The position numbers and the translations under genes were made by a program. Shown here piece after piece: positions 673 through 4,637 of a DNA stretch of 14,330 nucleotides. Below the pieces are notes generated by a model. It saw only the letters and a program-made list of their open reading frames with translations, did not search any database and had not been told where the DNA came from. Positions within the stretch are counted from its first letter, which is position 1; every line of letters starts with the position of its first letter. The stretch comes from a virus: UHGV virus genome UHGV-0200011. One strand, given 5' to 3'.

Positions 673-1031
673 ATACTTACAACATCACATTGCCCTGGCC
701 GCCGAGCAATAACCGCTACTACCGCCATAATCGCGGGCGCACGCACATCAGCGCAGAAGGGCAGGCATACCGCGATAACGTCGCCCGAATCATTAAAAAC
801 GCAATGCTGGATATCGGTCTGGCTATGCCTGTGAAAATCCGCATTGAGTGCCACATGCCGGATCGCCGTCGCCGTGACCTGGATAATCTGCAAAAGGCCG
901 CTTTTGACGCACTCACCAAAGCAGGTTTCTGGCTGGACGATGCTCAGGTCGTTGATTATCGCGTTGTGAAGATGCCCGTTACCAAAGGTGGAAAGCTGGA
1001 ACTGACAATCACCGGGCTGGAGGCCGTATGA
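669..1031 (+). CDS. rusA: RusA Holliday-junction resolvase
   Basis: Translation from GTG 669 gives (M)[107 protein letters not shown]..., near-identical to E. coli RusA as recalled. The ORF-track start at 606 lies inside ybcO; GTG 669 overlaps the ybcO stop (GTGA) with AGAGGGGG upstream. Confidence 0.9.
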
Positions 1032-1165
1032 CATTTGAATCCTGTTTTTCCGATCACCTCCGCGTTCGCTGGCAGCGGCTTCGCTTATACCACTTTCCCG
1101 GCTCTGTGCTGACGGATTACCGAATACTGAAGAACTACATCAAAACCATAGGCGGTGCAGTATGA
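1028..1165 (+). CDS. ylcG: YlcG-like small protein (45 aa)
   Basis: ATG 1028 overlaps the rusA stop (ATGA) and TGA 1163-1165 overlaps the Q start (ATGA). Hand translation [45 protein letters not shown]. Position between rusA and Q matches DLP12 ylcG. Confidence 0.5.
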
Positions 1166-1851
1166 ATACTCAATTTCTCGAATACGTGCGCCAGCAGTTG
1201 ATGGTGGCCACCGCCGATTTAAGTGGTGCGACGAAAGGGCAGTTGATGGCGTGGCTTGAAAACGCGCAGTTCGATACGGGAACGTTTAAACGTAAAAAGC
1301 CTCGAGTGCTGGATGAAGTGACCGGGGAAATGATTACGCTGGATAACCCGCCAATACCGGGCAAGCAGTCGCATGCCAAGGGTTCGCATATTCCCCTGGT
1401 GCAGCCGGTTGAATACTCCAGCGCATCGTGGCGCCGCGCACTGATGTCACTCGAAGAACACCAGAAAGCGTGGCTGCTATGGAACTATAGCGAGAACGTG
1501 CGCTGGTGCTATCAGGTGGAAATCACTCAATGGGCGTGGGCAGAGTTCCGGGAGCAGCTCGGCGCGAAGAAGGTGGCCGGCAAAACGATGGAGCGCCTGA
1601 AGAAGCTTGTCTGGCTCGCGGCTCAGGACGTGAAAGCAGAGCTGGCAGGGCGTGAGACGTACGAATATCAGGCGCTGGCGTCGCTGGTTGGCGTAACGCC
1701 AAAAAACTGGTCAGAGACCTTTACTGACCGCTGGGTTGAGATGCGCAGCATCTTCCTGCGACTGGATAGCGGGGCTTTATTGCAGGTTACGCGATCACGT
1801 TCACAACAAAAGGCGACAAATTTAGACTCAAGTCTTGCAAAACTGGATTGA
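1162..1851 (+). CDS. Late-gene antitermination protein Q (non-lambda Q family, QuuQ/82-like)
   Basis: 229-aa ORF immediately downstream of rusA/ylcG and immediately upstream of a promoter-terminator pair, the canonical position of lambdoid Q. Family assignment is from recollection and synteny, not alignment. Confidence 0.7.
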   Translation: MNTQFLEYVRQQLMVATADLSGATKGQLMAWLENAQFDTGTFKRKKPRVLDEVTGEMITLDNPPIPGKQSHAKGSHIPLVQPVEYSSASWRRALMSLEEHQKAWLLWNYSENVRWCYQVEITQWAWAEFREQLGAKKVAGKTMERLKKLVWLAAQDVKAELAGRETYEYQALASLVGVTPKNWSETFTDRWVEMRSIFLRLDSGALLQVTRSRSQQKATNLDSSLAKLD

Positions 1852-1863
1852 AACGCATATATT
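1835..1863 (+). promoter_or_regulatory. pR'-like late promoter (sigma70 -35 TTGCAA, 17-bp spacer, -10 TATATT)
   Basis: TTGCAA at 1835-1840 and TATATT at 1858-1863 with an exact 17-bp spacer, overlapping the 3' end of Q and about 55 bp upstream of a strong intrinsic terminator. Confidence 0.45.
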
Positions 1864-1917
1864 TCATGTAAATCTGATATCGTCGCCATAGCTTCGTAGG
1901 TCGACAAAGAATTAAGA

Positions 1918-1942
1918 GCCTCGCCATCGTGCGGGGCTTTTT
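1918..1942 (+). terminator. tR'-like intrinsic terminator
   Basis: Hairpin GCCTCGC-catcgt-GCGGGGC (7 bp including one G.U) followed by TTTTT. Confidence 0.6.
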
Positions 1943-1949
1943 CATTTCA

Positions 1950-2024
1950 GGGTCAGAAGCACAGCGGTTGTGCGTTCGGCTGTTAACCGAATGGTCGAAG
2001 GTTCGAATCCTTCCTGTCCCGCCA
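1950..2024 (+). tRNA. tRNA-like gene, anticodon GUU (Asn), non-canonical
   Basis: Hand-folded cloverleaf: acceptor GGGTCAG / CTGTCCC (one T-T mismatch), D-stem GCAC/GTGC, anticodon stem TTCGG/CCGAA with loop CTGTTAA, variable loop TGGTC, T-arm GAAGG-TTCGAAT-CCTTC, discriminator G and encoded CCA. Positions 8-9 are AA rather than U8. Confidence 0.5.
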
Positions 2025-2029
2025 AATTC

Positions 2030-2056
2030 GCCGGTCTAGTTCAGTGGCAGAGGTGG
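2030..2056 (+). pseudogene. tRNA 5'-fragment-like sequence (acceptor 5' strand + D-arm)
   Basis: GCCGGTC-TA-GTTCAGTGGCAGAGG resembles the canonical tRNA 5' region (U8 A9 and a D-arm with AGTGG loop) but no matching anticodon/T-arm follows; the HNH ORF begins at 2060. Confidence 0.25.
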
Positions 2057-2059
2057 TAA

Positions 2060-2485
2060 ATGCCGAGCAAAGATTACTATCTTAATCGAAGGGCTAGGCT
2101 TGCTAAGGCCGTGGAAAAGTTGGGTGGTCGTTGCGCGAGTTGCGGATCCGAATATTCGCTTCAGTTTGACCGCATAGACCCTTCCACCAAATCAGCAAAT
2201 GTAAGCGAGATGCACTATCACTCAGATTCGGTGTTTTATGCTGAGGTTGAAAAGTGCCAACTACTATGTTCTGCATGCCACATTCAGAAAACCAAATTTG
2301 ACCTTAGCTACTTAGTAGCTGGTGAGCTGAATGGTATGAGCAAGCTAACAATGGACAGCGTCCAGTTCATCAGAGAAAACTACATTCCACGACATAAGGT
2401 TTATGGAGCCAGAGGGCTAGGGAGAATGTTTGGTGTAACACATCAAACAGTGCTTTCAGCCTTAAATGGCGAAACCTGGAAATAA
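2060..2485 (+). CDS. HNH-family (homing) endonuclease-like protein with C-terminal NUMOD-like helix-turn-helix
   Basis: 141-aa ORF with CxxC (C25/C28), a FDRIDP segment, CSACH (C70/C73/H74) and a C-terminal GLGRMFGVTHQTVLSALNG motif typical of phage homing-endonuclease DNA-binding modules. Visibly more AT-rich than flanking phage genes; AGAGGTGG precedes the ATG. Confidence 0.7.
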   Translation: MPSKDYYLNRRARLAKAVEKLGGRCASCGSEYSLQFDRIDPSTKSANVSEMHYHSDSVFYAEVEKCQLLCSACHIQKTKFDLSYLVAGELNGMSKLTMDSVQFIRENYIPRHKVYGARGLGRMFGVTHQTVLSALNGETWK

Positions 2486-2486
2486 G

Positions 2487-2523
2487 CTGCGCGTCAGAGG
2501 TTCGATTCCTTTGCCCGCTCCAG
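2487..2523 (+). pseudogene. tRNA 3'-fragment-like sequence (T-arm + acceptor 3' strand)
   Basis: AGAGG-TTCGATT-CCTTT T-arm followed by GCCCGCT and CCAG, directly after the HNH stop; no complementary 5' acceptor strand is found nearby. Confidence 0.35.
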
Positions 2524-2902
2524 TAAAAGCTTTCCAGTCTGCGATGATGGGTTCCCCGGAGTGACTGGAAAGCGACCTGGTTTTGAATGGGCGCTGCTTT
2601 TTGCAAAATTGCTGTGTGAAAATACTGACCTTTGGGTTCAGCGCTCATCCAAAAGCATCACGTGAATTCACCAACGCTCATGTACTCTCCAGGAAACAAT
2701 AAGTGATTCTGAAAAGTTCCGGTTAGATATTGCCCCGGTCACCGGATGATTTTATCTTTTGGTTCGTGGTGAATCCCCCTATGCGGCGGGGCGTCCAGTC
2801 AAACTTTTTTGTCCAGGTTTGTTTGCGCGGAACTAGTCGGCTGGGGCTGTTCCACCGGGAGGCACCCGGCGCCACCTCCTTGACGGTATTGTTATTTTTC
2901 AT

Positions 2903-2929
2903 GCCTGTTCGTCCGAGCAGGCTTTTTTT
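2903..2929 (+). terminator. Strong intrinsic terminator
   Basis: GCCTGTTC-gtcc-GAGCAGGC (8-bp stem, one G.U) followed by seven T residues (2923-2929). Confidence 0.6.
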
Positions 2930-2960
2930 GCCCGCATTATCTTCATTGAAAACTGGCAAC

Positions 2961-3131
2961 TCAGAGAATCATCCAAATTAAAAAAGCAGCAACGAGAGCG
3001 ATTACTAATACATTCTTCGCTTTTTCTCTTCTGCTGGCCTTCACAAAAGGATTCACTATCCGGCAGTGGCTACACACAAGTGATTCTGGGTTAATTAACT
3101 TTCCGCAGTAGGGGCAGGGCTTGATAATCAT
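2961..3131 (-). CDS. Small zinc-ribbon protein with C-terminal transmembrane helix (56 aa)
   Basis: Hand translation of the minus strand: MIIKPCPYCGKLINPESLVCSHCRIVNPFVKASRREKAKNVLVIALVAAFLIWMIL. CPYC-x10-CSHC zinc-ribbon spacing, basic linker, then a 16-residue hydrophobic tail. Not in the ORF track (under 60 aa). No clear Shine-Dalgarno upstream, which lowers confidence. Confidence 0.35.
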   Translation of the reverse strand: MIIKPCPYCGKLINPESLVCSHCRIVNPFVKASRREKAKNVLVIALVAAFLIWMIL

Positions 3132-3338
3132 TGGTACTAATTAAGTTGTGAGAACGTAGTCTCATTTAACCACATTTATCGAGTTGTTTTACTAATGGTC
3201 TAGTTATTTCAGACATATTCATCAATTTCAGGCTCACGGGAATCATCCGCTACGTGCTTTGTTGATAAATCCAGCCCGTGAAGCCTGACCCTTTTCAAAC
3301 ACACACACAGCGCCATCCGAAAAATCGGAGGTGAGGCT

Positions 3339-3617
3339 ATGACCAGAATGAGCACCATTTACAGCAGACTTTCATATGGAACAGGCACCACGCTGACCGG
3401 CTGCGGTGTATCAGCGAAGGCATATGCCGAAACAGCAAAAACAGCAAAAGAGGTGTCCTGGATGTTGGCCGACAGAATTGCAGGGTTAAGCCTGAGCGAC
3501 TGGGCAATTATTGTCGGTATCGCATGCACGGTAATCACCTGTGCAGTGAACTGGTATTTCCGCTGGAAAGAACGGGAGGATCGGCGCAATGGCTATGTCT
3601 CTAAAGCTGAAGAATAA
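3339..3617 (+). CDS. Holin, P21 S-type pinholin-like, with dual-start motif
   Basis: 92-aa ORF with a Gly/Thr/Ala-rich first hydrophobic segment and a second TM segment (WAIIVGIACTVITCAVNWYF) followed by KEREDRR, resembling S21 as recalled. N-terminus MTRM gives two in-frame starts (3339 and 3348) separated by a basic residue. GGAGGTGAGG precedes the ATG. Confidence 0.75.
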   Translation: MTRMSTIYSRLSYGTGTTLTGCGVSAKAYAETAKTAKEVSWMLADRIAGLSLSDWAIIVGIACTVITCAVNWYFRWKEREDRRNGYVSKAEE

Positions 3618-4137
3618 ATTGAGCGCAGCGGTCGTTGGTTTGATTCTTGCCGGGGCTTCCGCACCCGTGATTCTCGATCAGTTTCTGGATGAGAAAGAGG
3701 GTAACAGCTTGACAGCATATCGCGACGGCGGCGGACTCTGGACCATTTGCCGTGGTGCAACAATGGTTGATGGCAAGCCAGTAGTACAGGGCATGAAGCT
3801 GTCAGCTGAGAAATGCGCCCAGGTAAACGCCATTGAACGCGACAAGGCGCTGGCGTGGGTTGACCGAAATATCAAAGTACCACTGACCGAACCACAGAAA
3901 GCGGGTATCGCTTCTTTCTGCCCATATAACATCGGCCCCGGAAAATGTTTCCCGTCTACGTTCTATAAGCGAATTAATGCTGGCGATACGAAAGGAGCCT
4001 GTGAAGCTATCCGCTGGTGGATTAAAGACGGTGGCCGCGATTGCCGCCTGACCAAGGGCCAGAAGGATGGATGTTATGGGCAGGTAGAACGGCGGGACCA
4101 GGAAAGCGCACTGACGTGCTGGGGGATAGACCAGTGA
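3589..4137 (+). CDS. SAR endolysin (T4-lysozyme-like, GH24 muramidase)
   Basis: N-terminal signal-anchor-release type segment (LSAAVVGLILAGASAPVIL) then E-x8-D-x5-T catalytic spacing (EGNSLTAYRDGGGLWT), resembling P21 R21 as recalled. Start overlaps the holin 3' end. Confidence 0.85.
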   Translation: MAMSLKLKNKLSAAVVGLILAGASAPVILDQFLDEKEGNSLTAYRDGGGLWTICRGATMVDGKPVVQGMKLSAEKCAQVNAIERDKALAWVDRNIKVPLTEPQKAGIASFCPYNIGPGKCFPSTFYKRINAGDTKGACEAIRWWIKDGGRDCRLTKGQKDGCYGQVERRDQESALTCWGIDQ

Positions 4138-4637
4138 AGCCGGGTGGCATCTGCATCATTGTGATTGTTGCGTTGGTAGGTTCGTTTCTCGCTGGCAGTG
4201 AGTGGACGAACCGCAGCTGGAAAATAAAGTGGGCTGACCGGGATAGCGCGGAATCTTCACAGGAAGCGAATGCACAGACCGCAGCTCGTATGATTGAACA
4301 AGGGCGAACAATCGCCCGGGATGAGGCCGTTAAAGATGCTCAAGCTCAAGCAGCGAGCGCTGCCGTTACTTCTGCTGGCCTGGCTACCACTGTTAAGCAG
4401 CTGCGCGCCGAAGCAACAAAACTCGCTACCCACATGGACGCCGCAAAGCACACCGCAGATCTCGCCACTTCCGTCAGAAGCAAAACAGCCGGAGCCAACG
4501 CAGCAATGCTTGCCGACATGCTCGGAAGCCTTGCAGAAGCAGCTCGATATTATGCTGGACGATCTGACGAAAGCTACCGGGCAGGAATGACGTGTGAGCG
4601 GATTTACGAATCAGTGCGACTGTCGAATAACCAATAG
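4134..4637 (+). CDS. Rz: Rz-like inner-membrane spanin (i-spanin)
   Basis: GTG 4134 overlaps the endolysin stop (GTGA) and is in frame with the 4041..4637 ORF. N-terminal TM helix ICIIVIVALVGSFLAGS followed by an Ala/Gln-rich coiled-coil-like periplasmic domain. The ORF-track start at 4041 lies inside the endolysin gene. Confidence 0.7.
   Translation: MKPGGICIIVIVALVGSFLAGSEWTNRSWKIKWADRDSAESSQEANAQTAARMIEQGRTIARDEAVKDAQAQAASAAVTSAGLATTVKQLRAEATKLATHMDAAKHTADLATSVRSKTAGANAAMLADMLGSLAEAARYYAGRSDESYRAGMTCERIYESVRLSNNQ
4336..4590 (+). CDS. Rz1: Rz1-like outer-membrane lipoprotein spanin (o-spanin), embedded in Rz in the +1 frame
   Basis: Signal peptide with lipobox LLSSC, then a proline-rich mature region, wholly inside Rz in another frame. 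Start chosen at MLKLKQ (4336); in-frame alternatives exist at 4294 and 4321. Confidence 0.65.
   Translation: MLKLKQRALPLLLLAWLPLLSSCAPKQQNSLPTWTPQSTPQISPLPSEAKQPEPTQQCLPTCSEALQKQLDIMLDDLTKATGQE

Follow-up and report, generated by a model that had tools for sequence, protein, structure and literature searches.

A divergent STnc100 small RNA gene and a candidate truncated tRNA-trailer element between Q and holin of a lambdoid prophage

STnc100 is a small RNA (sRNA) of prophages. Strain EDL933 carries 11 copies, all of which are transcribed and one of which was confirmed by Northern blot (PMC5331693), and in Stx2 phages a copy is located 75 nt downstream of stx2B (PMC12370729). The STnc100 prediction beside stx2B is overlapped by EcOnc27/sRNA103, an sRNA supported by Hfq-CRAC and Northern blot data (PMC7873438, PMC12711010). 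Overexpression of sRNA103/EcOnc27 raises the levels of the fimZ and espA transcripts (PMC7873438, PMC12711010). [quoted passage not shown] 2014, as reported in PMC7873438). PasD1 and PasD2 of EPEC, RNAs of 172-173 nt, were mapped by RNA-seq and Northern blot (Table S6, PMC8550237), and PasD was detected on Hfq by RIL-seq (PMC8550237). For PasD and STnc100 a common ancestor has been proposed, with seeds that differ between the two (bioRxiv 10.64898/2026.05.13.724894).

The window analysed here, a stretch of 14,330 nucleotides of virus genome UHGV-0200011, represents the late-regulatory and lysis region of a lambdoid prophage, all of it on the + strand. The following features surround the segment of interest:

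1162-1851, +: antiterminator Q (Pfam PF06323, E 1.7e-101)
1835-1863, downstream of Q: promoter-like site TTGCAA, 17 nt, TATATT (promoter scan)
1867-1940: isrJ-family RNA of 74 nt with its own terminator (Rfam scan, 68.7 bits)
about 1916-1945: tR'-like terminator, part of the isrJ-family match (terminator scan and Rfam scan)
1950-2024, +: tRNA-Asn (tRNA scan)
2060-2485: HNH endonuclease ORF (PHROG, E 9e-20)
2487-2522, +: 3' fragment of a tRNA-Thr-like gene, upstream border of the flagged segment
2524-2929: flagged segment of 406 bp, between the tRNA remnant and the end of the terminator at 2903-2929
3339-3617, +: holin (Pfam/PHROGs searches)
3589-4137, +: lysozyme (Pfam/PHROGs searches), with packaging genes next downstream

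The tRNA-Thr-like remnant comprises part of the 3' strand of the anticodon stem, the variable loop, the T arm, the 3' strand of the acceptor stem and the CCA end. ARAGORN called no tRNA at 2487-2522, and the remnant was recognised by alignment to the intact tRNA of E. coli OW1E2 (L005 2426-2499) and to HK639. A group I intron with the HNH ORF inside a split tRNA was considered and rejected, since no intron model was matched in the Rfam scan and the insert is too short for a ribozyme plus the HNH ORF.

The original prediction had described the flagged segment as GC-rich and poor in ORFs, ending in a strong intrinsic terminator and located at a known cargo hotspot. The GC content of 2524-2929 is 49.8% compared to 51.6% for the window, which corresponds to the 33rd percentile of 406-bp windows. 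The segment is thus not GC-rich, and GC content was rejected as a signal; positions 2741-2933 taken alone are slightly raised in GC (54.4%). The paucity of ORFs was borne out, as none of the three ORFs in question has a Pfam or PHROGs match:

2730-2981, +: ORF of 83 aa, TTG start
2723-2959, -: ORF of 78 aa, TTG start
2370-2648, -: ORF of 92 aa

The terminator was recovered as described, with an 8-bp stem, a 4-nt loop and T7 at 2903-2929. Terminator-like sites in 1000-4200 are not above chance (3 found vs 3.5 expected in the terminator scan), and the significance of the terminator at 2903-2929 therefore rests on how strong it is and on the fact that an RNA family conserves it as its 3' end. The assignment of the Q-to-holin spacer to the cargo slot that holds stx was correct, and STnc100 copies adjoin stx2 in Stx2 phages. 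Two inverted repeats that had been quoted are indeed present, but neither is used as a pairing in the STnc100 family structure. The first, CCGGTCACCGG at 2735-2745, is located in the spacer of the predicted promoter; of the second, GGGAGG (2857-2862) opposite CCTCC (2876-2880), the GGGAGG part belongs to the conserved P5 hairpin. The strongest inverted repeats of the segment had not been listed and are found at 2529-2539/2563-2573 (11 nt, 100% complementary) and 2578-2596/2639-2657 (19 nt, 84%).

Our analysis indicates that the flagged 406 bp most probably consist of two unrelated non-coding modules in the Q-to-holin spacer, an STnc100 sRNA gene in the 3' half and a truncated copy of an element termed block A in the 5' half. 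An Rfam search, which had been named as a check on the original prediction, yielded a full-length STnc100 match for the 3' half. In the scan of Rfam 15 STnc100 (RF02076) was placed at 2741-2933 (+) with 71.7 bits (gathering score 47) and an E value of 5.5e-14. The match covers model positions 1-206 of 206, and the E value was 3.3e-15 when the sub-region was scanned. The 3' half is a routine member of the known sRNA family STnc100 and no new class of non-coding RNA.

In HK639 (52.6 bits) and in the E. coli phage PHB10 (74 bits), STnc100 genes likewise lie between Q and holin and on the same strand. Four Klebsiella phages carry STnc100 between Q and holin (81-87 bits), and in Salmonella phage Fels-1 three copies were found in the Q-to-holin spacer (138, 83 and 59 bits). 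Furthermore, a pattern search revealed at least 120 IMG/VR contigs with both STnc100 core motifs. The variant of the window is rare, with at least 80% of its sequence being held by 10 of 5426 complete E. coli genomes, and PGAP has no annotation of the segment in any matching genome.

The elements of the STnc100 gene in the window are as follows:

2730-2735 (-35, TTGCCC) and 2753-2758 (-10, TATCTT), +: predicted sigma-70 promoter with a 17-nt spacer
2766-2875, +: STnc100 5' domain (Rfam RF02076, RNAfold, covariation)
G2766-G2771 with C2870-C2875, +: closing helix P1, 6 bp including one U-G
2775-2792, +: P2 hairpin, conserved; one P2 pair of the Rfam consensus is non-canonical in the window copy
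2855-2869, +: P5 hairpin CCGGG-AGGCA-CCCGG, invariant
2876-2902, +: linker CUCCUUGACGGUAUUGUUAUUUUUCAU, 27 nt, U-rich, single-stranded
2903-2922 (stem) and 2923-2929 (U7), +: Rho-independent terminator, 8-bp stem with one G-U, GUCC loop (scan and Rfam model)

The 5' motif of STnc100 is GGUGAAUCC(C/U)n with the P2 hairpin, and GGTGAATCC is present at 2768-2776 in the window; the invariant motif CACCGGGAGGCACCCGG, which includes P5, is present at 2853-2869. The multi-branch architecture of STnc100 was reproduced by both the MFE and the centroid fold (RNAfold) of 2766-2929. In the window copy P1 encloses P2, two central hairpins and P5, and the two outermost P1 pairs of the Rfam consensus are non-canonical and unformed. 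The single-sequence folding z-score of the 3' part (-0.88) is unremarkable. The terminator at 2903-2929 corresponds to the terminal hairpin of the Rfam STnc100 model, and an almost identical hairpin, in which the G-U pair sits elsewhere in the stem, is present in phage PHB10.

For the analysis of covariation 30 non-redundant STnc100 cores with less than 88% mutual identity were taken from the matches listed, aligned and submitted to RNAalifold. Among these 30 cores the closing helix P1, the P2 hairpin and the invariant P5 hairpin were recovered, of which P5 and part of P2 had been fixed by the search pattern itself. In P1 and P2 96.8% of the cells are paired, compared to 43-54% in slid controls. 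Cells with double changes numbered 34 vs 11.9 in shuffles, and 0 of 500 shuffles was as high, a control that overstates significance since the sequences share ancestry and the tested structures came from the same alignments. The clear compensatory exchanges in P1 are exemplified by columns 3/130, with GC in 15 and AU in 12 sequences, and by columns 2/131, with CG in 12 and UA in 6 sequences of the 30 cores.

Compared to the described relatives, the window copy shares with STnc100/EcOnc27 the full-length model match, the GGUGAAUCC and CACCGGGAGGCACCCGG motifs, the closing helix and the intrinsic terminator, as well as the Q-to-holin slot, which holds stx in Stx phages, and the orientation therein. 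It differs from the EHEC copies in that its sequence is unconnected to them by BLAST, it has a linker found in no other copy, its outer two P1 pairs do not form, and neither stx nor AsxR or AgvB adjoins it. PasD1 and PasD2 (EPEC E2348/69, EcOnc13) resemble it by the 5' motif, which appears as GCAUGGUGAAUCC at the mapped 5' end of the RNA, by the Q-to-holin context, and by the succession of a structured 5' domain, a single-stranded seed-bearing linker and a terminator. Nevertheless, PasD1 and PasD2 reach 41.4 and 37.7 bits, which is below the STnc100 gathering score, whereas the window copy reaches 71.7 bits. The PasD seed UGUGAG, located in the PasD linker upstream of the terminator, is absent from the window linker at 2876-2902, and the P5 region reads GCGGGAGGCGCCAUGC in PasD versus CACCGGGAGGCACCCGGC in the window. 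A blastn comparison of the window with PasD1/PasD2 yielded nothing beyond 14 matching nucleotides at the 5' motif (E about 1). From the bit score, the lack of BLAST likeness and the absence of UGUGAG we conclude that the gene is STnc100 proper and not PasD.

The window also resembles the EHEC dyads, as the genomic slot is the same and one dyad member is an STnc100-type RNA. For the other members, AsxR (RF02703) and AgvB (RF02702), no match was obtained at E values up to 10 on both strands of 2480-3345. Within the same limits an antisense partner or any further Rfam family was sought in 2480-3345 with only noise as a result, and scanning for promoter-like or terminator-like sites on the - strand found none. 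The window thus appears to have a single sRNA and no recognisable dyad.

RNA polymerase would start at the weak sigma-70 promoter preceding the 5' domain, as judged from family homology. This predicted promoter agrees with the consensus at 8 of 12 positions and was therefore missed by a promoter scan with a 9-of-12 cut-off. Its hexamers align with the TTGAC(C/T)-type -35 and TAAnnT-type -10 elements of the homologues. Of 95 unique upstream regions of the family, 57 have their best -10 element beginning 13-14 nt ahead of GGTGAATCC; the distance is 15 nt in the window. The mapped 5' end of PasD at GCAUGGUGAAUCC corresponds to window position 2765/2766, and the Rfam STnc100 seed begins about 25 nt too early for the transcript. 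Based on the PasD 5' end and the conserved promoter position, a primary transcript of about 165 nt is predicted, extending from about 2766 to about 2929. Alternatively, most of the RNA might be produced when late or read-through transcripts are processed.

The predicted RNA would be composed of a multi-branch domain of 110 nt closed by P1, the 27-nt linker and the terminator. The unpaired probability of the linker at 2876-2902 is mostly above 0.8 in the fold of the window copy. Across STnc100 members this region is hypervariable, and its sequence is specific to the window variant. By analogy with EcOnc27/sRNA103 and PasD1/PasD2, the linker is probably the seed and Hfq-contact region, and Hfq would be bound via the terminator, the U-tail and the U-rich linker. 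The variant-specific linker could then base-pair with host or phage mRNAs, so that the RNA would act as a trans-acting regulator in the lysogen that is encoded in a phage cargo slot. The STnc100 gene would accordingly be a cassette complete in itself, with its own promoter, a structured body, a variable single-stranded linker and a terminator. A search for a target of the linker among the translation-initiation regions of the window gave a best value of -23.8 kcal/mol, which was reached by 13% of shuffled linkers, and this candidate was rejected. Pairing of a CACCUCC motif with the Shine-Dalgarno sequence GGAGGUG of the holin gene was rejected as well, since it comprises only 7 nt and lies partly inside P1.

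In the scan, the hairpin at 2903-2929 was the sole terminator-like site found between the tR'-like terminator and holin, because the terminator of complete block A copies is missing in the window. Non-Q-modified transcription would be halted there ahead of holin and lysozyme, including leakage past tR', transcription of the tRNA-Asn/HNH region and transcription from the sRNA promoter itself, while Q-modified polymerase would read through. The sRNA terminator thus probably also shields the lysis genes from Q-independent transcription and premature lysis. It could be argued that the STnc100-like sequence acts purely in cis, as a terminator module insulating the lysis cassette or as an element that governs how the late mRNA is processed or how stable it is. 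Four terminators are annotated from Q to the lysis genes in HK639, three STnc100 copies stand in tandem in this spacer of Fels-1, STnc100 has no validated direct target (PMC7873438), and no standout linker target was found within the window. However, termination would need no more than a bare hairpin, whereas the 5' domain, a multi-branch structure of 110 nt that has invariant motifs and stems that covary, is maintained across phages of Escherichia, Salmonella and Klebsiella. The linker is also hypervariable and seed-like, and relatives are abundant in lysogens, with Hfq-CRAC and RIL-seq evidence (PMC8550237, PMC7873438). We therefore regard a function restricted to cis as rather unlikely and prefer an sRNA gene whose terminator may serve the lysis genes in addition.

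The 5' half of the segment is made up of block A and a junction:

2529-2657, +: block A with hairpins A1 and A2, directly 3' of the tRNA remnant
2529-2573, +: hairpin A1, GCUUUCCAGUC / GACUGGAAAGC, an 11-bp perfect stem right after the tRNA CCA
2578-2657, +: stem-loop A2, stem UGGUUUUGAAUGGGCGCUG / CAGCGCUCAUCCAAAAGCA (inverted repeat), near-invariant loop UUUUUGCAAAAUUGCUGUGUGAAAAUACUGACCUUUGGG
2658-2729, +: divergent junction, unrelated sequence in place of A3 and the terminator

For positions 2527-2666 the identity is 94% with a stretch of HK639 that lacks annotation, 88% with Fels-1 and about 77% with the copies present in 540 of 5426 E. coli genomes (about 10%); none of these matches reaches into the STnc100 part. 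At least 120 IMG/VR contigs carry block A. The full unit has a length of about 230 nt and consists of three hairpins, with the A3 loop GGGUGGUUUGUUGG, and the terminator GCCCGCUUUUGCGGGCUUUU. Most relatives carry this unit, including A3 and the terminator, in the space that separates their last phage tRNA from holin. A perfect-stem terminator follows 83-93 nt after the A2 motif in many of 55 distinct downstream contexts, including five of the seven commonest groups. The scan detected no terminator-like site in 2524-2902, so that block A of the window type is without a terminator of its own. The conserved A3 loop GGGUGGUUUGUUGG is also lacking in the window copy, and the predicted STnc100 promoter stands in its place; a short AUCAC/GUGAU complement was aligned by MAFFT at the position of the A3 stem. 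These borders would be explained by a recombination event that replaced the third hairpin and the terminator of block A with the STnc100 cassette.

The A1 stem is present in the MFE and centroid folds and is retained via compensatory changes in the copies of HK639 and of the AR434 type. Among 18 block A variants less than 96% identical, 97.2% of the cells are paired. Double-change cells numbered 35 vs 12.2 in shuffles, with 0 of 500 shuffles as high, numbers that stem from few independent events and that are likewise inflated by common descent and by structures taken from the alignment itself. Covariation is clearest in A3 (CG to UA, UA to CG) and in A2 columns 15/69. The full unit folds as three hairpins plus terminator, with z-scores of -4.93 (AR434) and -2.99 (HK639); for the 5' part of the window, which holds the truncated block A, the z-score is moderate (-2.44). 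A promoter inside A2 was considered as the cause of conservation and rejected, as neither strand offers a site with at least 9 of 12 consensus matches and the spacing of the hexamers, judged by eye, is unfit. The covariation within the A2 stem favours RNA structure over a promoter.

The original prediction had treated the segment as one unit of about 400 bp. BLAST matches span either 2527-2666 or about 2751-2929, and both parts occur together only in near-identical E. coli prophages. The comparison by BLASTN, proposed for judging conservation as a unit, thus revealed two halves that are conserved independently. The analysis of covariation across homologous prophages, proposed as a further check, showed covarying stems in two separate elements. 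A discrete non-coding + strand transcript ending at about 2929-2930 is favoured for the 3' half, some 165-190 nt, where the STnc100 match ends at the terminator; its predicted length is about 165 nt and not about 400 nt. The suggestion of decayed cargo is unsupported, given the lack of similarity to proteins and the covariation of the stems.

A single non-coding RNA or leader of about 400 nt could nevertheless be derived from the late (pR') transcript or from a tRNA precursor and end at 2929. Since no terminator-like site was found from the tRNA fragment to 2903 and the block A terminator is lost, a read-through RNA would span both modules, and an 8-nt perfect complement (2666-2673/2767-2774) could join the two parts. 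PasA, a Pas sRNA of the same prophage region, is reportedly cut from a longer transcript. On the other hand, the halves combine freely with other partners, and the composite of block A and STnc100 is confined to a small set of almost identical sequences, present in about 10 of 5426 E. coli genomes and in 9 IMG/VR contexts. Furthermore, a promoter-like element at the distance conserved in the family is located between the halves, and the mapped PasD 5' end corresponds to 2766 of the window. One RNA spanning the segment is therefore unlikely, and two separate modules remain the preferred reading.

It is highly improbable that the segment represents a pseudogene remnant of protein-coding cargo, or that a small protein is made from the 83-aa ORF on the + strand or the 78-aa ORF on the - strand. 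These ORFs overlap the region and the Q-to-S spacer is a known site of moron genes, but the 83-, 78- and 92-aa ORFs lack Pfam or PHROGs matches, and the first two have TTG start codons and overlap both one another and the terminator. Homologues are separated by many indels whose lengths are not divisible by three, substitutions compensate each other between stem strands and follow no codon pattern, and matching genomes were left without annotation by PGAP.

In 72 of 81 unique contexts block A is located directly 3' of a tRNA on the same strand, and in 55 of the 81 a distance of 150-199 nt separates it from the start of the next downstream ORF of 60 aa or more. A scan of one genome per species detected block A in Escherichia, Shigella, Enterobacter, Citrobacter and Yokenella only, to which Fels-1 adds Salmonella. 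No Rfam family matches block A, neither in the window nor in complete copies, and a literature search with block A sequence strings retrieved nothing that describes it. The possibility of a Pas sRNA was rejected, as block A has no resemblance to PasA, PasB, PasC or PasD of EPEC (coordinates from Table S6, PMC8550237). In EPEC PasA and PasC are encoded on the opposite strand beside an esterase or holin gene, and PasB lies in the tail region.

Block A, though not the STnc100 gene, is comparable to 3'ETS-leuZ and to RtT, the trailer RNA of tyrT, by its location directly 3' of a same-strand tRNA. By analogy, a complete block A, which runs to a terminator, would be released as a structured tRNA trailer. 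It differs from these RNAs in having no sequence or covariance-model similarity to any Rfam family, and in the window it is truncated and follows a mere tRNA remnant. Our tentative view is that block A in the window may constitute the leading part of a structured RNA family not yet described, located between the last tRNA and holin in many enterobacterial lambdoid prophages. It could serve as a tRNA-trailer sRNA or sponge, or as a leader for processing of the tRNA-lysis transcript or for lysis timing.

Real potential for novelty is confined to this truncated tRNA-trailer element in the 5' half. Block A is widespread, strongly structured and apparently undescribed, and hence a reasonable candidate for a new RNA family. 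The 3' half adds one more divergent, unannotated variant to STnc100, which a routine Rfam scan names and PGAP leaves blank. As its linker is specific to this variant, STnc100 genes may represent a swappable seed cassette in the slot that carries stx.

The interval between the antiterminator gene Q and the holin gene holds further elements on both sides of the prophage sRNA gene STnc100. Immediately 3′ of Q, a promoter-like site is followed by an RNA of the isrJ family (RF01393, 68.7 bits):

1835-1863, promoter-like site TTGCAA, 17 nt, TATATT
1867-1940, isrJ-family RNA, 74 nt

At its 3′ end this RNA has a GC-rich hairpin with a T-run, so that promoter-like site and RNA together take up 1835-1945. 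The element also occurs in HK639 (34.6 bits) and in one Klebsiella phage (57.2 bits). Judged by its position, the RNA is a short pR′-to-tR′ leader RNA, with lambda 6S RNA and StxS as positional counterparts.

Further downstream, a tRNA-Thr-like gene (region 2030-2522) is split by an HNH endonuclease ORF:

2030-2052, tRNA-Thr-like 5′ piece (acceptor and D arm)
2060-2485, HNH endonuclease ORF
2487-2522, tRNA-Thr-like 3′ piece

The 5′ strand of the anticodon stem and the loop are absent, and an intact tRNA is found at the equivalent position in E. coli OW1E2 (L005 2426-2499). Since no group I intron model matched the split region, the tRNA appears to have been destroyed by the insertion of a free-standing homing endonuclease.

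Block A, which lies 3′ of the tRNA remnant, is the front part of a larger unit, of which two complete examples are:

L003 1992-2262, complete block A of E. coli AR434
L001 2491-2722, complete block A of HK639

The complete form, which separates the holin gene from the last prophage tRNA, consists of three covarying hairpins in succession and a terminator. It folds much better than shuffled sequences (z = −4.93 for AR434 and −2.99 for HK639) and had no match in an Rfam scan. About 10% of complete E. coli genomes carry the unit.

Right after hairpin A2 of block A, ATTCACCA (2666-2673) is perfectly complementary over 8 nt to TGGTGAAT (2767-2774), which forms the 5′ strand of helix P1 in STnc100. 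If transcription read through both, this pairing could compete with P1; the complementarity may also be due to chance.

Convergent with the STnc100 terminator we noted a short ORF:

2961-3131, − strand, 56-aa ORF

Its product, MIIKPCPYCGKLINPESLVCSHCRIVNPFVKASRREKAKNVLVIALVAAFLIWMIL, is zinc-ribbon-like at the N-terminus (CxxC...CxxC) and hydrophobic at the C-terminus. The Pfam hits, DUF2116 and Zn_ribbon_3, were weak and under their cut-offs, tblastn against the phage collection gave no match, and the ORF is uncalled in the PGAP annotation of identical prophages.

In the STnc100 copies of four Klebsiella phages (L008-L010, L012) the conserved 5′ domain is present, but the ~130 nt 3′ of it show no obvious hairpin and U-run, unlike the E. 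coli and Salmonella copies, in which both follow this domain. In Salmonella phage Fels-1 (L002 1273-3028) the Q-to-holin spacer contains three tandemly oriented STnc100 copies (138, 59 and 83 bits), the last preceded by a copy of block A2. Several such cassettes can thus build up in this spacer.
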